NCBI GenBank assembly: GCA_036339995.1
Contig: JAYYZW010000119.1
Location: 691 to 64,690, forward strand
Direction: 5' to 3'
From: Pseudomonadota bacterium
GTDB taxonomy: Bacteria; Pseudomonadota; Gammaproteobacteria; Ga0077536
Length of the DNA stretch: 64,000 bases
The notes under the pieces were generated by a model. That model did no database searches. It was not told the DNA's origin and saw only the letters and a list, made by a program, of their open reading frames with translations. Below are positions 3,758 to 62,033 of this stretch, in pieces. Each line of letters starts with the position of its first letter. Positions within the stretch are counted from its first letter, which is position 1. The translations under genes and the position numbers were made by a program.

Positions 3758-3786
3758 GACGGCGCTTGCACGACCGTTCCCATTGA

Positions 3787-6346
<2,560 letters not shown>

Positions 6347-13797: not shown

Positions 13798-13970
13798 CTT
13801 AGGGAATCTCTGAATAAGTCATGGTGCGTCTGAATTGTTCATAAAATTGTGCAGATCAAGGCACGAATCGCAGCCAATAGCGGGGACTATTGGCAAGGTT
13901 CGTAACGCTGAGCTGCGCGATTTTATGGGCAAGGCAGATGTGCCATGACTTATTCAAAGGTTCCTTAGGG
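13798..13970. repeat. MITE/REP-like palindromic mosaic element, copy 1 (about 173 bp)
   Basis: TIRs CTTAGGGAATCTCTGAATAAGTCATGG ... CCATGACTTATTCAAAGGTTCCTTAGGG. About 90% identical to the reverse complement of the copy at 31678..31847. Central hairpin CCAATAGcggggaCTATTGG. Confidence 0.8.
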
Positions 13971-30460: not shown

Positions 30461-31634
30461 ATACCTTTTCGGAATCGTCGTTCTTCTGCTGCCGCTCGCG
30501 GCCGTCTCCGGTTGGTACTTCGGCCGTAGGGAAATTTCGCCCGATGCAGCGCGTAACGGCGTGTCAGGCATCTCATCAGACTATTTCCGCGGACTCAATT
30601 ACCTGCTCGACGACCGACCGGACAAGGCCATCGAGGTTTTCATCAAGGTCTTGGAGGTCGAAAGTGAAACCGTGGAAACACACCTCGCCTTGGGCAATCT
30701 GTTTCGGCGTCGCGGCGAAGTCGACCGGGCGATTCGCATTCACCAAAACCTGGTGTCGAAGCCGAGCCTGGACTTCGATCAGCGTGCGCTCGCGTTGCTC
30801 GAACTGGGTTTGGATTATATGCGTTCGGGTCTGTTGGACCGCGCTGAGAGCTTGTTCAAGGAATTGCTCGAATCCGGTGCGCACCAGCGCGATGCCATGG
30901 ACCACTTGATCGATATTTACCAGCAGGAGCAGGACTGGGACAAGGCGCTCGAATACACAGGGCGCCTCGAGAAACTGGCCAACCGCGATTTAGGTGACGT
31001 GCGCGCGCATTTTTATTGCGAGCAAGCGCAGACGCAAACCGAAGAGGGTAATATCGAGAATGCGAGCGATCTGTTGCGCCACGCGATTCGGATGGACAAG
31101 AACTGCGTGCGCGCAAGCCTCATGCAGGCGGAAATTGCGATGACCGCGGGCGCGTACGAGGCTGCGATTCGTCATCTCGAGGAAATCGAAAAACAGAACC
31201 TGGCGTTTCTGCCCGAGGCGATCAATCCGCTCGTCGAGAGCTACCGGGCCTTGGATCGTATTGCCGACCTCGTACGCTACCTTGAACGGTTAAGCACGCT
31301 TCACGCCGGGATCACTCCGGTGCTCGTACTGGCCGAAGTCATGACAGAACTGGGTGAGGTCGAGGAGGCGAAAAAGCGCATTATCGACGAACTCAAGATC
31401 CGGCCGACCGTACGGGGTATCGACCGATTGATCGATTATTCACTAACCAGCGCGGAAGGTGAAACGAAGGAGAATCTCGTACTCCTCAAGGAACTCACGG
31501 CAAGTCTCCTCGAGGAAAAGTCGAGCTACATGTGCAGAAACTGCGGATTCAAAGGACGCTCGCTCCACTGGCAGTGTCCCAGCTGTAAGCTCTGGAATTC
31601 GGTAAAACCGATCCACGGCATCGAGGGCGAATGA
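30450..31634 (+). CDS. lapB: lipopolysaccharide assembly protein B (TPR plus rubredoxin-like C-terminus)
   Basis: 394 aa. N-terminal TM helix, TPR repeats and C-terminal CRNCGF...CPSC metal-binding motif. Confidence 0.85.
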   Translation: MAAEYLFGIVVLLLPLAAVSGWYFGRREISPDAARNGVSGISSDYFRGLNYLLDDRPDKAIEVFIKVLEVESETVETHLALGNLFRRRGEVDRAIRIHQNLVSKPSLDFDQRALALLELGLDYMRSGLLDRAESLFKELLESGAHQRDAMDHLIDIYQQEQDWDKALEYTGRLEKLANRDLGDVRAHFYCEQAQTQTEEGNIENASDLLRHAIRMDKNCVRASLMQAEIAMTAGAYEAAIRHLEEIEKQNLAFLPEAINPLVESYRALDRIADLVRYLERLSTLHAGITPVLVLAEVMTELGEVEEAKKRIIDELKIRPTVRGIDRLIDYSLTSAEGETKENLVLLKELTASLLEEKSSYMCRNCGFKGRSLHWQCPSCKLWNSVKPIHGIEGE

Positions 31635-31677
31635 ACCGACGCTGCAAGCGTTTGTGCGCCGATCACTGCGCCATAGA

Positions 31678-31847
31678 TTTAGGGAGCCCCTAAATAAGTC
31701 ATGGTACATCTGCCTTGCCCGTGAAATCGCGGAGCCTTACGTTACGAACCTTGCCAATAGTCCCCGCTATTGGCAAGGTTCGTGCCTTGATCTGCGCGAT
31801 TTCGTGAACAATTCAGACGCACGATGACTTATTCAGAGGTTCCTTAG
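31678..31847. repeat. MITE/REP-like palindromic mosaic element, copy 2 (about 170 bp)
   Basis: TIR pair ...TAAATAAGTCATGG / CGATGACTTATTCAGAGGTTCCTTAG. Perfect 17-bp central hairpin ACGAACCTTGCCAATAG-tccccg-CTATTGGCAAGGTTCGT. Right end 7 bp from the pyrF ATG. Confidence 0.8.
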
Positions 31848-31853
31848 CTTGCG

Positions 31854-32573
31854 ATGAACAGATCGCTTAAACCGGTGATCGTCGCCCTCGATTTCCCGAA
31901 TCTGGATCTAGCGCTCACACTAGCCGATCGACTCGATCCCGGCGTCTGCCGCGTCAAAATCGGCAGCGAATTATTCACGCGCGCCGGCCCGGGGTCGGTT
32001 CGCGCGCTGATCGAACGCGGCTTTGACGTCTTTCTCGATCTCAAGTTTCATGACATTCCCAACACGGTCGCGGGCGCCTGTCGCGCCGCGGCTGAATTGG
32101 GTTGCTGGATGATGAACGTGCACACTGGAGGCGGTGCCGCCATGATGCAGGCCGCGCGGGAAGCGATTCACTGCGATGATGGCCCACTACTCATCGGCGT
32201 TACGGTTCTGACCAGCATGGGCGACGCGACACTCGACGCGGTCGGCGTTCGACACTCTCCAATGGATCAGGTCTCGCGACTCGCACGGCTGGCGGCTGAG
32301 GCAGGACTCGATGGTGTGGTCTGCTCGCCGATGGAGCTCGCCGACTTGCGCGGGCAACGGGGCTTCGACTTCAAACTCGTGACCCCTGGCATCAGGCCTC
32401 TCGGTGCGGCCCGCGGCGACCAGAAACGGATCGCAACGCCCGCAGAGGCCATCACAGCCGGAGCTGATTACCTGGTCGTCGGCAGACCGCTGACAAGCTC
32501 CGAGCATCCAGAAGAGGTGCTGGCCATGATCAACGCTGAATGCGCCACCGCGGCGGATACCCGCGACCACTGA
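31854..32573 (+). CDS. pyrF: orotidine 5'-phosphate decarboxylase
   Basis: 239 aa with PyrF motifs VALDF and [11 protein letters not shown]. Confidence 0.9.
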
Positions 32574-32587
32574 TCTGTTCGATCGCC

Positions 32588-35500
32588 ATGCTTGAGCCCT
32601 CCGCGCGACCCAGCCCGCTTGACCCGCCGCGCCCGGGCGAACCCGGCGAGATCGGTCAGTGGACGCGTCTCTATGGCGCGGCGAAATCGGTCGCAATTGC
32701 CGCGGCAGCCAGCGATCAAAATGGTCCGGTGGTCATCATCGCGCCCGATACGGCGAGCGCGATCCGCTTCGAACGCGAGATCGCTTTTTTCGCCCCGGCA
32801 TTACCGCGCTATGCAATTCCCGACTGGGAGACGCTTCCATACGATCGCTTCAGTCCGTACCAGGACATCATTAGCGAACGGATCGCGACCCTGATCCGCA
32901 TGCCCTCGATCACCCACGGCGTCGTCATCATGGGGGTCAACACGGCGATGCACCGCTTTGCGCCGCGCAAATGGATGAACGCTCGCGCATTCAGTCAGAA
33001 TCCGGGTGATCAGCTGGACCGTGTCGCGTTTCTCGCGAAGCTTGACGCGGCCGGGTATCGCCGATGCGTGCAGGTGGCAGAGCACGGAGACTACGCCGTT
33101 CGCGGGGCCTTGATCGATGTTTTCCCGATGGGCGCGGATCAGCCGTTTCGCATTGATCTCTTTGACGATGAAATCGAAACGCTGCGCCGCTTCGATGTCG
33201 AGACCCAACGCTCGATTTCACACGTCGATGCCATCGAACTACTGCCGGCCCGCGAGTTCCCGCTCGACGACAGTGCGATCAGAGAATTTCGCCGTGCCTG
33301 GCGCCTCGAATTCGAGGGTCGCCCGCAAGCCTGCTCCCTGTACGAAGACGTGTCGGCCGGTCTGGCGCCGGCCGGCATCGAATACTACCTGCCTTTGTTC
33401 TTCGACGAGCTCGCGCTCGTCACGGATTACTTCCCGGGTAACGCGCTGGTAGTAATCGACGAAGGCGTGGAGGCGGCGTCGGAACGTTTTAAGCACTCGG
33501 TCCAGGAACGTTATGAAGCCCTGCGGCACGATAGCGAACGTCCGATCGTGAAACCGCCGCGCATGTTTGTAGATTTCGACATCATTCTCGCAGCGCTGGC
33601 ACCATTTTCCTGCCTGACAGTCAGTGGCATAGAACCGACGCGCGGCACACGTGCTACGGAGTTCGCTGCGCACGCACCGGTGCAGGTTCCGGTCGACGCA
33701 CGTGCTGCCGACCCGTTCGCCCTGTTGCGCGACTACACCGCGCGCGCGGATGGGCGCATCTTGTTCCTGGCCCCATCGCTCGGCCGCCGTGAGACCCTGA
33801 TGGAACTCTTTACCGCGCAGCCGTTTCGGCCTCGTCCCTTCGAAACGTGGTCGGATTTTTTGCAAGCAGACGCGCGGGTCGGGATTGCGGTGGCGCCCGC
33901 CGTTGGAGGTGTGGAAATCGAAACGCCCCGCATCAGCTTGCTGACTGAAGCGCAGTTATTCGGCGAGCGCGCCGCGCAAAGCAGACGCAGACGCCGCAGC
34001 GCCGCAGATAGCGAAGCAGTCATCAGAAACCTGACCGAGCTTCACGATGGTTCACCGGTCGTACACGAGCAGCACGGGGTCGGTCGTTTTCAAGGCCTCG
34101 AGGTATTGGACGTGGGCGGAATTACCAACGAGTTCATCAAGCTCGAGTATGCCGACGGCGACATCCTCTACCTGCCTGTCAGCGGGCTCAACCTGATCAG
34201 CCGTTACTCGGGCGTCGATCCAGACCACGCGCCTTTGCACAAACTGGGTAGCGGACAGTGGGACAAGGCGCGTCGAAAGGCCGCGGAAAAAATTCGAGAC
34301 GTGGCTGCAGAACTGCTAGAGATTAATGCCAGGCGCGCGGCGCGCAAGGGCCATGCATTTGCCGTGGATCGAGGAGCCTACACCAGCTTCGAGCAGGCTT
34401 TTCCATTCGAAGAAACGGTCGATCAAATCAGCGCCGTCGAGGCCGTGTTTGATGATATGCAGAAAGAACAGCCCATGGATCGGTTGATCTGCGGCGACGT
34501 CGGGTTTGGTAAAACCGAAGTCGCAATGCGGGCCGCGTTTGTTGCGGTTAATGATGGCTTCCAGGTCGCCATCCTCGTGCCGACGACTTTGCTCGCGCGC
34601 CAGCATTTCGAAACTTTAAAGGATCGCTTTGCAGACTGGCCGGTTCGCATCGAACAGCTTTCGCGCTTTCAAGATTCCAGGGCCGCGCGCGATGTACTCG
34701 CCGGCCTTGCCGACGGCAGGGTCGACGTCGTCGTCGGCACTCATAAATTGCTGGGGAAGGATGTCCGATTCAGGCGCATGGGCCTTTTGATAGTCGATGA
34801 AGAGCACCGCTTCGGTGTACGCCAGAAAGAGCAGATCAAGAAACTCCGCAGCGACGTCGATATTTTAACGCTCACCGCAACGCCGATCCCGCGGACTCTC
34901 AATCTCGCATTGGCCGGAACGCGCGAACTCTCGATTATTGCGACGGCACCGGCAAAACGTCTAGCAATCAAGACCTTTGTCAGGGAGTGGTCGGAGCCGC
35001 TGGTGCGCGAGGCGATTCTGCGCGAGATCGGACGCGGCGGCCAGGTGTACTTCGTGCACAACGAAGTCGGGAACATCGAAAAAATGGCGGATAAGGTGCG
35101 CGAGATCGCGCCAGAAGCGCGCGTCGCGGTAGCCCACGGTCAAATGCGGGAGCGCGCGCTGGAGCAGGTCATGCTCGATTTCTATCACGGCCGGTGCAAT
35201 GTGCTCTTGTGCACGACGATCATAGAATCCGGCATCGACGTGTCGAACGCTAACACCATGATCATCAACCGAGCGAATAAATTCGGGCTCGCGCAACTCT
35301 ACCAGCTTCGCGGTCGGGTCGGGCGGTCTCATCACCGCGCATACGCTTACCTCGTGGTCCCGCATCGCAAGGAGATGACCACTGATGCGGTCAAGCGACT
35401 GGAAGCTATTGAATCACTGGAGGAACTCGGCGTCGGCTTTTCCTTGGCTACGCATGACCTCGAGATCCGGGGCGCCGGAGAAATCCTCGGTGAGGAGCAA

Positions 35501-36055: not shown

Positions 36056-36830
36056 AAAATACCTGTGCGCTGCGCTTGCCGCCCTGCTTGCGCTACCGGG
36101 TGCGGGTATGGGTGCGGGTGTGGGTGTGGGTGCGGCAGGGTGGTACCAGGTCGAGGTCGTCGTATTCCGGCATCTCCAGGGGCTAAGCGCGGGGGGTGAA
36201 GCCTGGCCGGAACTTACGGATCTTCCCGAGTTCGGCCGCGCTATGGAATTGATCATCGATCTGCCCGAGATGTCCGACGAACCGCCGCCGCTGACGGCGG
36301 GTTCAGAAGCCGGGCCGACCCCCATTGCATTCGAATTACTGCATAAAAAGGACCGCAAACTGAATGGCGTAGAGACTCGGTTACGGAATAGTGGCGAGTA
36401 TGAACCGCTTCTTTTCGCCGCCTGGCGCCAACCGAGTTTCGGCGTCGCCCGCGCTAAGCGGATTTATCTCTCTGACGATTATCTCACGAGGCGCGGCCCG
36501 ATCTTCACCGAATCGGATCCCGTGCACGGCGTTTCCGCCGTGGTGCCTCGTGCCGAGGGCGTGATCAGGGTCAAAGTCGGCCGTCTGCTCCATGTTAACG
36601 TGGACTTTCTTTATTACCACGAGGGCAACCCGGTACGCTTGACCGAAACGCGCAAACTCAAACTCCGGGAGATTCATTATTTCGATCACCCTCTGTTCGG
36701 CGTCATCCTTCAGGTATCCCCGTGGGTGCTACCGCAACTCGATCCGAAATCCGAGACCGATGGCGGCGAAGAAGACCGGCTGCAAGACGAGACCTCAGGT
36801 AAGCTTGCGGGTCAAAGCATCGATGATTGA
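36045..36830 (+). CDS. secreted hypothetical protein, possibly CsiV-like
   Basis: ATG 36045 overlaps the mfd 3' end by 11 nt. Signal peptide MLLKKYLCAALAALLALPGA followed by a (GxG)n hexanucleotide-repeat linker. The CsiV call rests only on a recollection that CsiV sits beside mfd in Vibrio. Confidence 0.45.
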   Translation: MLLKKYLCAALAALLALPGAGMGAGVGVGAAGWYQVEVVVFRHLQGLSAGGEAWPELTDLPEFGRAMELIIDLPEMSDEPPPLTAGSEAGPTPIAFELLHKKDRKLNGVETRLRNSGEYEPLLFAAWRQPSFGVARAKRIYLSDDYLTRRGPIFTESDPVHGVSAVVPRAEGVIRVKVGRLLHVNVDFLYYHEGNPVRLTETRKLKLREIHYFDHPLFGVILQVSPWVLPQLDPKSETDGGEEDRLQDETSGKLAGQSIDD

Positions 36831-53224: not shown

Positions 53225-53392
53225 CTTAGGGAACCTCTGAATAAGTTACGGCACATCTGCCTTGCCCGTGAAATTGCGGAGCCTTACGTTACGAACCTTG
53301 CCAATAGTCCTCGCTATTGCCTGCGGTTCGTGCCTCGATCTGCACTGTTCATGAACAATTCAGACGCACCATGACTTATTCAGAGGTTCCTC
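53225..53392. repeat. MITE/REP-like palindromic mosaic element, copy 3 (about 168 bp)
   Basis: Same orientation as copy 2. TIRs CTTAGGGAACCTCTGAATAAGTTACGG / CCATGACTTATTCAGAGGTTCCTCA. Degenerate central hairpin. Begins 1 nt after the TPP-enzyme TGA. Its right terminus contains the TGA stop of the lipoprotein gene. Confidence 0.8.
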
Positions 53393-54110
53393 AGATTCCA
53401 GATTCCTGAGCGGCGATCCCTATTGCGTTCGTCAACAAGACCGACAAGGAATCGAATATCGTCGTGCGATGCGATTCTCTAATTGCCTGCACGCCAGAGC
53501 CGGTTTCGTATCGAGGCCGCCACACCGACTCCGTGAGCGGAGCGACCTGCCGTCCGCCCGCTCTGCCGACAACGAATTGCCTTTTCACGTCAATGGCTTC
53601 GATTGCGATGGCGGCATAGGCGAATACGCCCGTATCGAAGGCTTTCTGGAAGCCGTAACCGCGAATGTTCTGGTTGGTATGGGTGACGTAGTCTTGCGCG
53701 ATGTCCGGATAGACTACCACCACCATATCGAGGCCTTTTGCGGCGCCCGCCTGGTAAACGCGTTCGTGAATCTCACCGGTATCGCGGTAACCCCATTTGG
53801 ATTCGGCAATACCAAACGAGCTGTCGTCCCGGCGGATCCGAATCACCTCGAACCCTTTCCTGCGCAACCGGGCGCCGACTTTTTCATAGACGAGGGCGTC
53901 AGCGTCCCAGCCTTCCAGCACGGTGCTGGAGAACTTGCTTTCCATGGCTGATATCGACAGGTAACTTATGTAGGGTTGCCGGTTGACCAGCGACAGCACG
54001 CCGACCTTGGTGATCCTCGCCGCATGCTCCGCGGTCATGCGTGATTGGCTGGTATTCAGCAGGCAGCCCGTCAGCGCGGCGCAGCACAGATAGATCAAAT
54101 TTTTGATCAC
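53391..54110 (-). CDS. hypothetical lipoprotein
   Basis: GTG start at 54110 gives MIKNLIYLCCAALTGCLLN (lipobox LTGC). About 239 aa. The longer TTG-initiated ORF was rejected. Confidence 0.5.
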   Translation of the reverse strand: MIKNLIYLCCAALTGCLLNTSQSRMTAEHAARITKVGVLSLVNRQPYISYLSISAMESKFSSTVLEGWDADALVYEKVGARLRRKGFEVIRIRRDDSSFGIAESKWGYRDTGEIHERVYQAGAAKGLDMVVVVYPDIAQDYVTHTNQNIRGYGFQKAFDTGVFAYAAIAIEAIDVKRQFVVGRAGGRQVAPLTESVWRPRYETGSGVQAIRESHRTTIFDSLSVLLTNAIGIAAQESGI

Positions 54111-57248: not shown

Positions 57249-57758
57249 TCACCCCGTTTGGTTTCGATTTATCCACCGTCGATCGGCGAGCACCACCGAG
57301 GTTTCGATCTGACGCTCGGGGATGTTCCAGTATTCACGGAGCAAGCGTTCCTTGTCAGCATAGGATACGGGTACGAAACCATGACCTTCGTAGAAAGCGA
57401 TGGCCCAGTTCGCGGCTGCCCAGGTCCCGACCAACAACGGCTTGCTGCAAGTCGATCGAACATGCGCTAGCAGCGCACGGCCGATGCCGGCGTGCTGCCG
57501 GCTCGGCGCGACATAAGCGTGGCGAATCAAGGCGAGGTCCCCGAGAACCTGAATGCCCATTACGCCCACGATCGCGGTCGCGTCGCCGGCCAGCCAGAAT
57601 TCGACCCGTTGCGCGATTTCCCTTTCGAGTTCCTGTCTCGGCATATACGGTTCGTGCCATCGATCCGGCGGTATGACGCCCTTGTAGGCGACCGCAGCGT
57701 CGTTGATGATCCTTAATACCTCGTCAAAATCCGGTGGGCTATAAGGCCTGATTAACAT
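57249..57758 (-). CDS. GNAT family N-acetyltransferase
   Basis: 169 aa. Acetyl-CoA-binding motif RQHAGIGRALL. Confidence 0.75.
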   Translation of the reverse strand: MLIRPYSPPDFDEVLRIINDAAVAYKGVIPPDRWHEPYMPRQELEREIAQRVEFWLAGDATAIVGVMGIQVLGDLALIRHAYVAPSRQHAGIGRALLAHVRSTCSKPLLVGTWAAANWAIAFYEGHGFVPVSYADKERLLREYWNIPERQIETSVVLADRRWINRNQTG

Positions 57759-57790
57759 TTCTAACGAGCACCGTGTTACGGCTAGCCGCT

Positions 57791-57940
57791 TGTCGGACTT
57801 AGGGAGAATCTACTGCGGCGTTGGGATAGCGGTCCAGATGCGCGATGGTTCTCGTTAAATAGTCCCACTATTCGCCTCAAACCATGACACATCTGGACTC
57901 GCTCTCCCAACCGCCTCGCTACGATTCCCTAAGTCCGACA
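57791..57940. repeat. divergent/mosaic member of the same palindromic element family, copy 4 (about 150 bp)
   Basis: TIRs GTCGGACTTAGGGAGAATC / GATTCCCTAAGTCCGAC. Nested inverted repeat CCAGATG...CATCTGG. Central AATAGTcccACTATT related to the CCAATAGtccccgCTATTGG core of copies 1-3. Confidence 0.7.
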
Positions 57941-57945
57941 GGCTG

Positions 57946-59151
57946 CTACGGTGCAGGGCCGATCACCCCGGATTTTTCCAGCGCCGCGATTTCTTCTGTC
58001 GTCATGCCCAGGTGGTCGCTCAGCACGTCGTAATTGTGTTCGCCGATACGTGCAACCGCAGCACCGACGACGGCATGGGTGTCGGAAAACAGAAACGGCG
58101 AGTTCGGCACCTTAAGCGGTCCGGCCGCGTCATTTACTTCGGTCAGCATGCCGCGATGGACCAGTTGCGGATCGCCGTCCAGGTCGCCTATCCCGCGATA
58201 AGTTGCGCACGGAAGCCGGCGCGCCTCGAAGGCTTCCATCGCTTCGGTCGAGGTCTTCGTGCGCGTCCAGGATTCGATTTCGTCCTGCAGAAAATCGTAG
58301 TTGTATATGCGGGCGGTGGTCGTGGTGAAGCGGGGATCTCCGATCAAATCGGGGCGCCCTACGCAATTCATGAGGTCGACGAAATGGTGCTGGTTGAGCG
58401 GTATCACCATGACGAAGCCGTCGCGGGTTTCGAGCGGGCCGTAATGCCGATCGTTCATTTCGCCGTTGAAGGCGCTTTGAAAGTCCTTGTGCATCGTCGC
58501 CAGCAGGGTGTCTTGCATCGCGATGTCGATGTACTGCCCTGTTCCTGAGTTGGCGCGGTAATAAAGGGCCGCCATGATGGCGCCAAAGGCCTGCAACGAG
58601 GCACTCGTATCACCCACTGGCAGGCCCATGTTCAGCGGTCGCGTGTGTCCGGGTTGGGCCCGCTGCGTGACGAAATCGTAACCGCTCGTCGCCTGCACGA
58701 TAGGCGCGTAGGCGGGACGCGACGCTTCGGGCCCGGTCTGACCGTATCCCGATATCGAGCACATGATGAGTCGTGGATTGACCGATTTGAGGGTTTCGTA
58801 ATCGAGGCCCAGACGCCGCATGACGCCCGGGCTGTAATTTTCGATGACTATGTCGTGAGTTGCGAGCAGGCGCTTGCAAAGATCTACCGCCTCGGACCGT
58901 TTGAGATCCATCGACACGCAGAGCTTGCCGCTGTTCACTGCACTGAAAAGCGCGCTGACGTCGCCGCGCATGGGCCCCGCCGTACGGAGGATCTCACCCT
59001 CGGGCGCTTCAATTTTGACAACTTCGGCACCGAGGTCCGCCATCAGGCGCGTGCAGTAGGAGCCCGCGATCACTGCGGTGAAATCGAGTACGCGTACGCC
59101 GTCGAGCACGCGCGGTCCGTGTTCGTTGCGGTTTTTTTCCATAGTGAGCAT
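57946..59151 (-). CDS. CoA-transferase family III (CaiB/BaiF) protein
   Basis: 401 aa. VLDFTAVIAGSYCTRLMADLGAEVVKIE N-terminal signature. Confidence 0.8.
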   Translation of the reverse strand: MLTMEKNRNEHGPRVLDGVRVLDFTAVIAGSYCTRLMADLGAEVVKIEAPEGEILRTAGPMRGDVSALFSAVNSGKLCVSMDLKRSEAVDLCKRLLATHDIVIENYSPGVMRRLGLDYETLKSVNPRLIMCSISGYGQTGPEASRPAYAPIVQATSGYDFVTQRAQPGHTRPLNMGLPVGDTSASLQAFGAIMAALYYRANSGTGQYIDIAMQDTLLATMHKDFQSAFNGEMNDRHYGPLETRDGFVMVIPLNQHHFVDLMNCVGRPDLIGDPRFTTTTARIYNYDFLQDEIESWTRTKTSTEAMEAFEARRLPCATYRGIGDLDGDPQLVHRGMLTEVNDAAGPLKVPNSPFLFSDTHAVVGAAVARIGEHNYDVLSDHLGMTTEEIAALEKSGVIGPAP

Positions 59152-59186: not shown

Positions 59187-62033
59187 TCAGGTCGCGATCA
59201 CTACCCGTATCGCGTCGAGTTTCAACTGGGCCGCACGCAGATAGCGTTCGAGATTCTGCATGCTCGTCTCGAAATGGGCGATTTCTTCCTCACGTACGTT
59301 CGGATTCACCTTGGCCAGACTCCGCAGGCGATCGATTTCAGCCTGCACGAGCTCCTTCATCGCCGTGCTTGCCTGCTCGACGATCCCCTCCTGCGCGACC
59401 TCTGCCAGGTGCGCGGCATGGTCGAGGAGTTCACCGATTAGATCGCGTGTCTTCGCGATCACTTTCTGCGCCGTAGACGGCGGTACATCTCGCACATGCT
59501 CGTTGAACCAGGCTGCTGGAAAACGGTCTGTTGCGTCTTCGCCCGCGGCATCGATCAGCAATCGAAGCGAAGATTGCGGCAGGAATCGTTCGACCTGTAG
59601 CCCGCGCGGAGCGGGACAGACGATCACGAACAGGGCTTCGATCAATAGGGTACCGGGATTCAAGCCCGGTGCCTTGACCACGCCAAAACTGGCGTTTCCA
59701 AATTCGCTGCCCAGTATCATGTCGACGGCGCCGGTCACCATGGGATGTTCCCAGGTCAGGAAATGCATGTCGTCTCGCGACTGGGCCTGGGTGCGATCGA
59801 AGGTGACCGTCAGTCCGCCCTCGGGAAGTCCGGGAAATTCATGGCAGCTCATGTGATCGCCGGGATGCACGACGAGGCTGGTCTCATCATTGTCTTCGTG
59901 CTCGACGCCGAATTCGTTGAATACGTCGTCGAGCCAGGTGCGCAGTTCGTCGGCACGTTCAGCGGTGCCGATGGCACTGACGATATCGTCCGCCCGTCTA
60001 CGGTCGAATGAATTGCGTTCGAGCAAGCGGTCGCGGCCACGCTTCAGTATTTCGGTCAATTCCAGTGCCCGCGCCCGCGTGGCCTCGACGAGACGCGCCA
60101 ATGTGGTTTCGTCTTCTGGATGCGTCATGCAATATTCGAGCGCTTCCGAGAATTCAGCGATGAGAGCTGGCCCTGCAGGGCAGATGTGAACAAAGGCGTC
60201 AAGGCCGTCGTGCAGCCAGCGGAATAGCACGGCCTGTGCCGTGCCACGGAACCAGGGTATGTGAATTTCGACCGTGTGGTTTTGGCCGATGCGGTCGAGG
60301 CGCCCGATCCGCTGCTCGAGGAGATCCGGGTCGGGCGGTAAATCGAACAGCACCAGGTGCCGCGCGAACTGGAAATTGCGACCTTCGCTACCGATCTCCG
60401 AACAGAATAGCGCCTGCGCATCGTCTTGCTGGTCGGCGAAGTAGGCTGCGGCGCGATCGCGCGAGACGAGTTCCATCCCTTCGTGGAAAACAGCCGAACG
60501 CAGCCCTTTCCGGGAACGCAGGTGAGCCTCCAAGGTCTGCGCAGTATCGGCGTAAACGCAGATCACCAGGACTTTCTCGGTGCGGTGAGACGTCAGCCAT
60601 TGCGCCAGCCATTCGACGCGCGGATCGAAGCTCAACCATTCGTCTCCGAGGAGAGTCTCTGGCGTTAGCCGTGCCACCGCGGGCACGCTGGTGTCCGCTT
60701 CCAGATATTCTGCGGGCGGTTCGAGTTCGTGGGCGTGAAGACGCCGTTCCGGAAACCCGCTAATGTTGTCCCGGCAGTTGCGGAACAGAACGCGTCCTGT
60801 GCCGTGGTGTTCGAGTAATTCCGCGACGATTCGATCCATGAACTCGTGCGCCGGGCGTGCTAGATACTCCGAGCGCAAAGCGGCGATGCGGTCGGTCCCG
60901 ATGTAGTCTGCGGCGGCCGCTTCCAGATCAGGGTCGATTAGATCGCGCGAATCGGTAAGCTGTTCGACCAGGGCGTTGACTTCTCCGTAGCGCCGCTCTT
61001 CGTCAAGAAACCTCGCCAAATCGTGATAGCGGTTACCGTCGAGTAGGCGCAGACGCGCAAAATGCCCCTCTACGCCGAGTTGTTCGGGCGTGGCCGTCAG
61101 CAGCAGCAGGCCTGGAGCCGCCGTGGCAAGTCGCTCGATGCGATCGTAAGCCGGCGTGGTATTTTCCGGCGTCCATTGGAGATGGTGGGCTTCGTCGACG
61201 ATCAACAAGTCCCAATCGGCGGCGCAGGCTTGCTCGTGTCTTTCCGGATGGTCGACCAGAAAGGCGAGACTGGTCAGAACGAGTTGTGCGGATTCGAAGG
61301 GATTGGGCTCGCCCGAGGCTACCAACTCCTCGCAGATCTCCTCGTCGAGGATGGAAAATCTTAAGTTGAAGCGACGCAGCATCTCGATCAGCCATTGATG
61401 GACCAGATTCGCCGGCACCACGATGAGTGCCCGTTGGGCGCGTCCGCTCAACAGGAGCCGGTGCAGGATCAGCCCGGCCTCGATGGTTTTGCCGAGCCCC
61501 ACTTCATCGGCCAGAAGAACGCGCGGCGCATGACGGCCGGATACTTCGTCGGCGATATAGAGTTGATGCCCCAGCAGTTGGACGCACGGTCCGACCAGGC
61601 CGAACACGGGAGAAACCCGGTGGCGGTGTTGATGGCCTAACGTATCGCTGCGCAGCCGGAATCGGCTCGTTTTGTCGACTTGCCCGGTAATCAACCGGTC
61701 TAGCGGACGGTTGAACTGCACGAAGCTGTCCAGATCGATCTCGTGCACGCTGAGCGCCCGGCCGCGCGCGTCGATGCTCTGGTAGACGAAGCAACCTTCG
61801 ATTTCCTCGACGGACTCAACGATGAACTCCGCACCGTCCTCGCTGCGGATCCGGTCGGCCGCGCGGTACTGAACGCGCGTCAAGGGAGCATTATCCAGGG
61901 CATAGGTCCGGCGTTCCTCGCTCGCTGGGAAAGTCATTACGACGTGCCGGTTCTGCACCTCGAACACGATACCGAGGCCGAGCTCGGGCTCGGTATTACT
62001 GATCCAGCGCTGTCCGGGATGGCATTCGTTCAT
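59187..62033 (-). CDS. rapA: RNA polymerase-associated SNF2-family ATPase RapA (HepA)
   Basis: 948 aa. LADEVGLGKTIEAG (motif I), DEAH box and helicase C-terminal domain. N-terminus parallels RapA. Confidence 0.9.
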   Translation of the reverse strand: MNECHPGQRWISNTEPELGLGIVFEVQNRHVVMTFPASEERRTYALDNAPLTRVQYRAADRIRSEDGAEFIVESVEEIEGCFVYQSIDARGRALSVHEIDLDSFVQFNRPLDRLITGQVDKTSRFRLRSDTLGHQHRHRVSPVFGLVGPCVQLLGHQLYIADEVSGRHAPRVLLADEVGLGKTIEAGLILHRLLLSGRAQRALIVVPANLVHQWLIEMLRRFNLRFSILDEEICEELVASGEPNPFESAQLVLTSLAFLVDHPERHEQACAADWDLLIVDEAHHLQWTPENTTPAYDRIERLATAAPGLLLLTATPEQLGVEGHFARLRLLDGNRYHDLARFLDEERRYGEVNALVEQLTDSRDLIDPDLEAAAADYIGTDRIAALRSEYLARPAHEFMDRIVAELLEHHGTGRVLFRNCRDNISGFPERRLHAHELEPPAEYLEADTSVPAVARLTPETLLGDEWLSFDPRVEWLAQWLTSHRTEKVLVICVYADTAQTLEAHLRSRKGLRSAVFHEGMELVSRDRAAAYFADQQDDAQALFCSEIGSEGRNFQFARHLVLFDLPPDPDLLEQRIGRLDRIGQNHTVEIHIPWFRGTAQAVLFRWLHDGLDAFVHICPAGPALIAEFSEALEYCMTHPEDETTLARLVEATRARALELTEILKRGRDRLLERNSFDRRRADDIVSAIGTAERADELRTWLDDVFNEFGVEHEDNDETSLVVHPGDHMSCHEFPGLPEGGLTVTFDRTQAQSRDDMHFLTWEHPMVTGAVDMILGSEFGNASFGVVKAPGLNPGTLLIEALFVIVCPAPRGLQVERFLPQSSLRLLIDAAGEDATDRFPAAWFNEHVRDVPPSTAQKVIAKTRDLIGELLDHAAHLAEVAQEGIVEQASTAMKELVQAEIDRLRSLAKVNPNVREEEIAHFETSMQNLERYLRAAQLKLDAIRVVIAT

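Follow-up and report, generated by a model that had tools for sequence, protein, structure and literature searches.

The 64,000-nt stretch of contig JAYYZW010000119.1 (Gammaproteobacteria; Ga0077536) that we analyzed, hereafter the window, contains four hairpin-forming elements, numbered copies 1 to 4 in order of position. Copy 4 (positions 57785–57946) is, on the evidence of its sequence, very probably a 162-bp non-coding and non-autonomous miniature inverted-repeat transposable element, or MITE, that belongs to a lineage of IS1182-family insertion sequences (IS) with ends GGAG(C/T)CTGTCGGACTT. We assign it to this lineage because IS1182-family elements of about 1.57 kb share both its 16–19 terminal nucleotides and its flanks. 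A first-pass annotation of the window had described copy 4 as a shorter, mosaic variant of the family formed by copies 1–3. Copy 4 is instead a canonical full-length member of a family of its own, which we call type 2, copies 1–3 being type 1.

Extent and fold of copy 4

The family profile, the modal length of the family and the fold together place copy 4 at 57785–57946 in its canonical plus-strand orientation, which is antisense to the surrounding genes. The limits given earlier, 57791–57940, were too tight, as the palindrome extends 7 nt more on each side. The left terminal inverted repeat (57785–57810, plus strand) reads GCCGCTTGTCGGACTTAGGGAGAATC and contains the core CTGTCGGACTT that is also found at IS1182-family ends in loci L037, L146, L147, L157 and L166–L171 (L numbers denote loci retrieved in our searches). 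The right repeat (57923–57946, minus strand) is, in reverse complement, GCAGCCTGTCGGACTTAGGGAATC and carries the motif GATTCCCTAAGNCCGACAG, which is present at at least 120 loci. The two repeats agree at 19 of their first 21 positions, and pairing resumes past a 2-nt bulge to reach about 24–26 nt. All sequence motifs quoted in the first-pass annotation are present: GTCGGACTTAGGGAGAATC at 57792–57810, GATTCCCTAAGTCCGAC at 57923–57939, the nested repeat CCAGATG (57834–57840) and CATCTGG (57889–57895), and the core AATAGTCCCACTATT at 57858–57872. The terminal repeat of 17/18 bp that was drawn from them, however, is exact over 14 nt (GTCGGACTTAGGGA, present at 57792 and, in the opposite strand, at 57926–57939) and is then interrupted by a 2-nt indel. 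Nor is copy 4 a shortened form: 162 nt is the modal length of its own family, and copies 1–3 measure about 161–164 nt. A TA dinucleotide adjoins the element on either side (57783–57784 and 57947–57948). On family-wide flank statistics, these are the two copies of a putative 2-bp target-site duplication, of which the right-hand one forms a TAG stop codon with G57946.

A repeat search detected three inverted repeats in copy 4, namely 57783–57805 with 57926–57948 (23 nt, 91%), 57820–31 with 57900–11, and 57832–63 with 57867–98, and found no repeated sub-unit within the element. As the three are nested, copy 4 forms one long hairpin, the outer pairing of which extends to 57783 and 57948 and the apex of which is the small hairpin AATAG-TCCCA-CTATT (57858–57872, plus strand) that also occurs in copies 1–3. 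The minimum free energy of the corresponding RNA is −101.3 kcal/mol for the minus strand (z = −11.8) and −93.6 kcal/mol for the plus strand (z = −10.4). The position of the element directly after a stop codon might bring to mind an ordinary intrinsic terminator or, more trivially, a chance palindrome, but neither deserves more than negligible credence given a z of about −11 with none of 200 shuffled sequences as stable, the lack of a U-tract or terminator call and the existence of at least 120 homologous units.

No open reading frame (ORF) of 60 or more amino acids lies inside copy 4, which is accordingly short and non-coding, as expected of a MITE, and it is bounded by terminal inverted repeats that are at least 90% conserved across 81 copies of the family. 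No promoter-like or terminator-like motif was found in it. The whole window gave no match to Rfam at gathering thresholds, and a search in E-value mode with copies 4 and 2 returned generic microRNA-hairpin matches alone, far under the threshold. An integron attC site was considered and rejected: on inspection the ends do not fit the RYYYAAC...GTTRRRY boxes, and the copies lie 4–21 kb apart among housekeeping genes.

Type-2 copies in other genomes

Further units bounded by the same terminal repeat are numerous, which bears out the first-pass annotation in treating copy 4 as a repeated element. A metagenome scan with the right end of copy 4, GATTCCCTAAGNCCGACAG, alone returned at least 120 loci, and nearly all of those listed are complete units built like copy 4. 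Two loci with the architecture of copy 4 come from genomes, one from a gammaproteobacterial metagenome-assembled genome (MAG; L003) and the other from Paraherbaspirillum soli (L012). The family is thus hosted by members of metagenomes and by Gamma- and Betaproteobacterial genomes, and the G+C content of its host contigs ranges from 37% to 65%. The length is 161–163 nt in 76 of 92 units, and the consensus reads GGAGCCTGTCGGACTTAGGAAGAATC...AATAG-GCCCA-CTATT...CGATTCCCTAAGTCCGACAGGCTCC. A profile of 81 metagenome copies (nhmmer) matches copy 4 over profile positions 4–161 with E=7e-36, the score being 118.8 bits on the plus strand and 38.5 bits on the minus strand; the type-2 family therefore has a defined orientation. 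Among the listed loci, the nearest relatives of copy 4 are L028 and L120, each with 82% identity. A weak match of the same profile at 5524–5612 of the window lies inside a coding sequence and was set aside as noise.

The family is dispersed in the way that MITE families are, with differing flanks at the at least 120 loci and with multiple copies per contig in L052 and L132. Short forms of 65–130 nt that keep both ends are found in L027, L043, L132 and L133; the three right ends that L132 displays within 14 kb represent two short, internally deleted copies and one right end without a nearby left end. In L030 and L109, extra hairpins have been inserted at the apex. We found no MITE family with copy-4 ends in Rfam, in a plasmid collection (no match in blastn distant mode for either of the queries, copies 4 and 2) or, by sequence, in the literature, where a search with sequence strings returned unrelated primer matches alone. 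A review of MITEs names neither IS1182 nor CTAG.

Flanks and target sites

The sequence adjoining type-2 elements is conserved over three positions. Counted outward from the element, about 85% of 90 copies have CTA at the left-hand positions 1–3 and TAG at the right-hand ones, and position 4 and onward are random. Direct repeats in these 90 copies are TA/TA in 60 cases, 3 nt long in one case and 4 nt long in none. Two tandem elements in L052 (one of them at 1280–1441) have a single TA between them. Of 97 type-2 copies, 24 have a junction TAG that ends a reading frame open for 300 nt or more, and the same holds for copy 4, where the open frame is 1341 nt long. With a G as the outermost base of each end, an element inserted in the TA of a TAG stop codon would rebuild that codon. 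By crude gene calling, the elements that lie in tandem gene contexts have the same orientation as the flanking ORFs in 10 cases and the opposite orientation in 14. By the same calls, 15 copies lie between convergent and 8 between divergent genes, and gene 3′ ends are adjoined somewhat more often (81 vs 55).

IS1182-family elements with the same termini

The transposase genes found next to type-2 termini are all of the IS1182 family (DUF772 and DDE_Tnp_1_6 domains). They are located in L037, L157 and L166–L171, with L146 and L147 added by their core motif. L037, a match to the type-2 right end, is a deleted IS of about 840 bp with the ends GGGACTGTCGGACTT... and ...CCGATTCCCTAAGTCCGACAGTCCC. 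Its ORF opens with a DUF772 transposase domain, and an end of this IS reads CTGTCGGACTTAGGGAATCGG. Homologues of the L037 protein led to the two-ORF IS copies L146 and L147, which have the core terminus CTGTCGGACTT, and to the elements of L166–L171. The latter are about 1567 bp long and are bounded by CTA followed by GGAGTCTGTCGGACTTTG... on one side and by ...CACCGACAGGCTCC followed by TAG on the other; the termini that abut these flanks are GGAGTCTGTCGGACTT... and ...CCGACAGGCTCC. Their ends, GGAG(T/C)CTGTCGG..., thus present the 16-nt terminus and the CTA/TAG flanks of the type-2 MITE. The two in-frame ORFs of these elements match the NCBIfam model for IS1182, NF033551, at positions 3–162 and 171–475 with 142.8 and 137.7 bits, respectively. 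L166–L171 are therefore IS that combine the termini of copy 4 with an IS1182-family transposase, and L157 and L037 lend further support. L157 emerged from a scan of viral contigs for the left end, which besides it gave mostly chance matches. It reads CTA followed by GGAGCCTGTCGGACTTAGG, identical to the type-2 MITE end at 19 of 19 positions, and about 75 nt inward lies ATG...MGERFINIDRETP, the conserved N-terminus of this group of IS1182 transposases.

The IS1182-type ends of this lineage carry GGAGYCTGTCGGACTT. The sequence TTAGGGAATC, which had been taken for the terminus of the family, is the inner portion of the IS1182-type terminal repeat. A nested origin of the element, in which an IS5-type element would lie within IS1182 ends, was also considered and was dropped, as TTAGGGAATC belongs to a genuine IS1182-type IS end in L037.

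TA duplication in CTAG targets is a hallmark of IS630, and the TA/TA flanks of copy 4 within CTAG would suit a MITE mobilized by a transposase of the IS630/Tc1-mariner type. We regard this origin as decidedly improbable, because the transposases adjoining copy-4 ends are all IS1182-family and no IS630-type gene was seen beside such ends, though no dedicated search for one was made.

Some of the IS-bearing contigs show further features. In L168 (1499–3019), a single in-frame TAA splits the IS1182 transposase into parts of 164 and 339 amino acids in the same frame, and an identical 164-aa transposase product is recorded for eight contigs, six of them read here. The split transposase of L166–L171 could be a pseudogene, or it could be expressed through read-through or recoding. 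L147 contains a MITE of about 130 nt (2747–2880) with the termini of the adjacent IS1182-like IS (GGGGGCTGTCGGAC...), and both this MITE and its neighboring IS are inserted in GTCCC...GGGAC palindromes. The IS of L146 has its GAGCC/GAGCC flanks within a GCACGCG...CGCGTGC palindrome. L146 and L147 were rejected as the partner lineage of type 2 on account of their other flanks and are counted as relatives only.

The insertion in the CoA-transferase–GNAT operon

Pfam verifies the genes between which copy 4 had been placed. Upstream in the sense of transcription is a CoA-transferase family III gene (57946–59151, minus strand; CoA_transf_3, E=2.4e-99), and downstream is a GNAT acetyltransferase gene (57249–57758, minus strand; Acetyltransf_10, _7 and _1). 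The gene rapA (59187–62033, minus strand), a CoA-binding protein and a pyridoxal phosphate (PLP) enzyme of Cys/Met metabolism, all by Pfam, are further neighbors on the minus strand. The TAG stop codon of the CoA-transferase gene (57946–57948, minus strand) is made up of the right-hand TA and the last base of copy 4. On the other side, a spacer of 24 nt (57759–57782, minus strand), which has no counterpart in relatives, separates the left TA from the GNAT start codon; part of it (57768–57774) is the inverted complement of the end of the CoA-transferase gene (57948–57954). The insertion TA sits within a small stem-loop, and the inverted repeat GCACCG...CGGTGC surrounds the insertion point.

An exact look-up of the CoA-transferase protein gave no record, and a homology search was used in its place. 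The CoA-transferase of L150 has 85% amino acid identity to that of the window and those of L151–L153 have 75–77%, the order rapA, CoA-transferase, GNAT being the same. None of these four loci contains copy 4, and in each the stop codon of the CoA-transferase gene overlaps with the start codon of GNAT, whereas here the two genes are about 190 nt apart. The insertion is present on contigs of two near-identical strains, L148 and L149 (Logan DRR683881 and DRR683877), which are the sole near-identical public contigs of this locus. Copy 4 is thus polymorphic in presence and absence, another property of MITEs. Both contigs stop inside the element, 27 and 15 nt past the stop codon, as a short-read assembly would at a repeat. 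This suggests that the organism has more than one copy and that its short-read assemblies break up at the element. The surroundings had been called an accessory region. They do not look accessory, because the gene string rapA, CoA-transferase, GNAT, CoA-binding protein, PLP enzyme is kept in relatives. If the 2-bp duplication holds, the uninterrupted site would have read ...GCACCG TA GCCGTAAC... with a single TA.

Several observations weigh against reading copy 4 as a type-2 insertion of IS1182 descent. The window contains a single type-2 copy. The relatives are without the 24-nt spacer as well and hence are not exact empty sites; for this reason, the 2-bp duplication is derived from family statistics and is not seen directly. 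CTAG is itself palindromic, so that the element could include CTA and TAG as its own outermost bases, in which case nothing would have been duplicated. With respect to the partner elements, (i) the candidate transposase of L166–L171 has an in-frame stop codon, (ii) L146 and L147 combine the same core terminus with other flanks, GAGCC/GAGCC and TCT/TCT, and (iii) the similarity between MITE and IS is confined to 16–25 terminal nucleotides.

Conservation of the hairpin in the type-2 family

Covariation was computed on the 81-copy type-2 alignment with RNAalifold, which predicts 41 pairs. Altogether, 92.9% of the alignment cells are paired, and both sides have changed in 24 of the 41 pairs. The covariation score is 0.350, compared to 0.111 for shuffles (none of 500 reaches the observed score) and to at most 0.126 with slid partners; as the copies are mutually related, the covariation counts overstate the number of independent events. 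The apex stem provides an example, with the compensatory variants AATAG/CTATT, CATAG/CTATG, AATGG/CCATT and AATAT/ATATT. Conserved in sequence are the ends (columns 1–34 and 141–172) and, in the interior, the asymmetric blocks CGGTCCATAT and AAAATCTGNCCTCG. Since covariation is strong and the ends are conserved, the arms differ among type-2 sub-lineages through compensatory substitution. The description of copy 4 as a mosaic with fixed ends and core and swappable arms is consequently right in part: type-2 copies differ in their arms around constant ends and a constant apex, but the arms differ by compensatory substitution and not by the swapping of modules. One-sided G-U intermediates are nearly absent in the covarying pairs. 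A manual tally of G·U versus A·C mismatches (about 42 without, or 114 with, one conserved G·T pair, versus about 101) gave no usable strand signal.

The strong covariation and the great stability of the hairpin, which lies within a string of co-directional genes, could also be read as the signature of a cis-acting structured RNA that processes, stabilizes or attenuates the CoA-transferase–GNAT message and is not mobile. That copy 4 is primarily such an RNA is very improbable, considering (i) its absence from the syntenic relatives, (ii) the unrelated neighbor genes of the family and the lack of an orientation bias (10 vs 14), (iii) the near absence of G-U intermediates and of any Rfam match, and (iv) the existence of full-length IS with the same ends. 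We infer that copy 4, as a MITE, is selfish DNA without a strand-specific role of its own.

Relationship to copies 1–3

Copies 1–3 are mutually 86–92% alike and constitute one family. With their flanks, they are located at 13799–13968 (copy 1, minus strand, TTAG/TTAG), 31679–31847 (copy 2, plus strand, TTAG/TTAG) and 53226–53394 (copy 3, plus strand, TTAG/TCAG), and all are recognized by the type-1 profile (copy 1 with E=3.8e-49). Copy 2 lies between a gene whose product ends ...CPSCKLWNSVKPIHGIEGE and the next gene; reading by eye, we take these neighbors to be a lapB-like gene and pyrF. Copy 3 begins 2 nt past the stop codon of a thiamine diphosphate (ThDP)-enzyme gene. The terminus of copies 1–3 is GGAACCTCTGAATAAG with 4-nt YTAR direct repeats and reads [YTAR]GGAACCTCTGAWYAA. 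In the type-1 family at large, the terminus GGAACCTCTGA(A/T)(C/T)AA has the same four bases on both sides, TTAG/TTAG in copies 1 and 2, CTAA/CTAA in L013 and TTAA/TTAA in L174. It matches the ends of Escherichia coli IS5, GGAAGGTGCGAA(C/T)AAG, at 12 of 16 positions. In L173, it is followed by an ORF starting MEQNQQFSFADAEYANKG, which resembles the start of E. coli IS5 InsH, MSHQLTFADSEFSSKR. Judged by these termini, copies 1–3 are a separate MITE family of the IS5 group. A scan of a genome collection with the pattern TTAGGGA...apex returned 25 loci, of which about 15 are relatives of copies 1–3 in Gammaproteobacterial MAGs.

The type-1 and type-2 elements of the window have a number of properties in common. 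Both are full-length hairpins of 161–164 nt, both have TA-centered YTAG flanks and terminal repeats beginning GGA(A/G)CCT, and both display the apex AATAG-TCCC(N1-2)-CTATT, which bears out the earlier remark that the core of copy 4 echoes the hairpin of copies 1–3. Within the window, AATAG-N4-7-CTATT occurs solely at the four element apices, the five occurrences of TTAGGGA all lie inside the four elements, and CTTAGGGA occurs four times against 0.49 expected. Because these short motifs are confined to the four elements or exceed expectation, their sharing is not random noise in the window. AATAG is found at the apex in 56 of the 81 type-2 copies, a sample that was not selected on the apex. An alignment of the two consensus sequences is marginally above shuffles (z of 2.5 and 3.8), and both types are found on single contigs in three cases: the window, L074 and L081. 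The type-1 material in the last two, both fetched for their type-2 elements, is a copy at 2810–3035 of L074 and a fragment at 3763–3825 of L081.

These likenesses speak for a single family of which copy 4 would be a diverged or mosaic member, with common ends and core and exchanged arms in the manner of bacterial interspersed mosaic elements (BIMEs). We nevertheless consider this highly improbable. The profiles do not detect each other's elements: the type-1 profile misses copy 4 (E > 10), which cannot be aligned with copies 1–3, and the type-2 profile yields nothing on copies 2 and 3 and 1.7 bits, at the apex only, on copy 1 (E 6.9). The statement that copy 4 keeps the terminus CTTAGGGA fails because the positions of this string are not equivalent in the two kinds, and the string is thus not homologous: in copies 1–3 it consists of one flanking base, the TTAG direct repeat and GGA of the element, whereas in copy 4 it occupies positions 14–21 of the terminal repeat. 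Neither terminus nor flank is shared, as copy 4 reads [TA]G(G/C)AGCCTGTCGGACTTAGG with 2-nt flanks and type 1 has 4-nt direct repeats; 4-nt YTAR with IS5-type ends (L173) thus stands against 2-nt TA with IS1182-type ends. The type-1 copies of L174, moreover, have different apex hairpins. Lastly, copy 4 is a single continuous 162-nt hairpin with no repetitive extragenic palindromic (REP) unit, no alternating Y/Z arrangement and no GTAG head, which removes the grounds for calling it BIME-type. L003 and L012 were considered as bridges between the two families and rejected in this role; the search pattern that found them forced TTAGGGA and the apex, so that they are not independent evidence.

If type 2 is a family distinct from type 1, its common apex possibly reflects an exchange of modules among elements of the same genome or the convergent gain of a hairpin that is of use. 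A bolder reading, to which we assign a rather low probability, is that a full-length hairpin with an identical apex in two families, tied by their ends to the IS5 group and to IS1182, represents an exchangeable functional core module of DNA or RNA, MITE cores being re-armed with other terminal repeats. Were this true, the apex or the hairpin would be needed for propagation or tolerance, for example as a site for a host factor or in a fold-back transposition intermediate.

Other type-1 loci were compared to the window in passing. The syntenic locus L010 (6400–7700) is without copy 2: it has a 4-nt intergenic gap where the window (31630–32620) has copy 2 upstream of the gene read by eye as pyrF. 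A type-1 copy of its own separates, in L010, the genes read by eye as pyrF and mfd, which in the window are about 20 nt apart. The type-1 insertions in this syntenic stretch are independent in the window and L010. The ThDP-enzyme gene that precedes copy 3 is also followed by a type-1 copy in L013, at another offset and in the opposite orientation. Elsewhere in the window, G-rich short-period repeats (GGGTGCGGGTATGGGTGCGGGTGTGGGTG...) and a complementary stretch 31 kb away (36097–36138 and 4809–4838) were detected as inverted repeats.

A model for the origin and fate of copy 4

We propose that a DDE transposase of the IS1182 lineage, supplied in trans, bound both terminal repeats, and that the element was inserted at TA, preferably in CTAG, with duplication of the TA. 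Insertion in the TA of a TAG stop codon would rebuild TAG and leave the CoA-transferase intact, and such sites would be tolerated. The CoA-transferase–GNAT mRNA probably includes copy 4, transcribed in its antisense orientation, as a stable hairpin some 160 nt long. By separating the two genes, copy 4 would have abolished their ancestral stop/start overlap; in the mRNA it would break translational coupling and, more speculatively, could alter mRNA processing. Its compensatory upkeep would mean that the fold-back structure matters for the propagation or persistence of the element.

For annotation, copy 4 is best entered as a probable MITE insertion; the labels regulatory RNA, BIME and variant of copies 1–3 should not be used for it. 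It would mark a recent rearrangement of an otherwise conserved operon and show cleanly how a transposon can land in TAG stop codons and restore them. The family to which it belongs is abundant in environmental bacteria yet absent from Rfam and the plasmid collection, and it breaks short-read assemblies, two contigs ending inside the element. The upkeep of a 160-nt hairpin and an apex common to an unrelated MITE family are modest leads on the constraints that act on MITE interiors.

Comparison with known systems

REP units are palindromes of about 20–40 nt with a GTAG-type head that alternate in Y and Z forms with linkers and are mobilized by RAYT (Y1) transposases. BIMEs, REP units and REPINs resemble copy 4 in being repeated, extragenic, palindromic and often located just past stop codons. 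Copy 4, however, forms one hairpin of 162 nt that lies between TA flanks, ends in DDE-type terminal repeats and has an IS1182-family partner.

Correia elements (NEMIS/CREE) of Neisseria are MITEs of about 100–160 bp that duplicate TA and end in inverted repeats of about 26 bp. They often lie beside or between genes and are co-transcribed with them, and RNase III processes the hairpins in their transcripts. Their sequences are not similar to copy 4, and Correia elements carry an integration host factor (IHF) site and promoter elements, none of which is seen in copy 4. The copy-4 family, for its part, differs from them in a hairpin that spans the whole length of the element with family-wide covariation. 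Palindromes over the whole length are found in ERIC/IRU and YPAL, enterobacterial intergenic elements of about 127–170 nt that are co-transcribed with their neighbors and likewise have no sequence similarity to copy 4. ERIC is not known to have an autonomous partner with the same ends, whereas one was found for the copy-4 family.

Closer to hand, copies 1–3 are similar to copy 4 in their length of about 162 nt, full hairpin, YTAG-centered target, GGA(A/G)CCT start, apex and co-occurrence, and they differ from it in the arms, in most of the terminal repeat, in flank length and in their IS5-type link.

The closest known counterparts of copy 4 are MITEs derived from DDE insertion sequences, with the IS1182 family (IS1272, for example) as the source of the transposase. 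Like them, copy 4 is short, non-coding and of a multi-copy family, has terminal repeats identical to those of full-length IS1182-family elements, and shows presence/absence polymorphism, with internal deletions in its family. Reportedly, IS1272 takes the place of a stem-loop at its target and causes no duplication, whereas the copy-4 lineage shows TA/TA flanks, and the interior of copy 4 has no similarity to IS of the IS1182 family. A publication on IS1272, PMC5678879, states with a citation of Siguier et al. that palindromes or stem-loops are the targets of some members of the IS1182 family; the preference as worded there fits both the palindromic CTAG and the GCACCG...CGGTGC inverted repeat at copy 4. 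Copy 4 is thus an ordinary element of a well-known kind.

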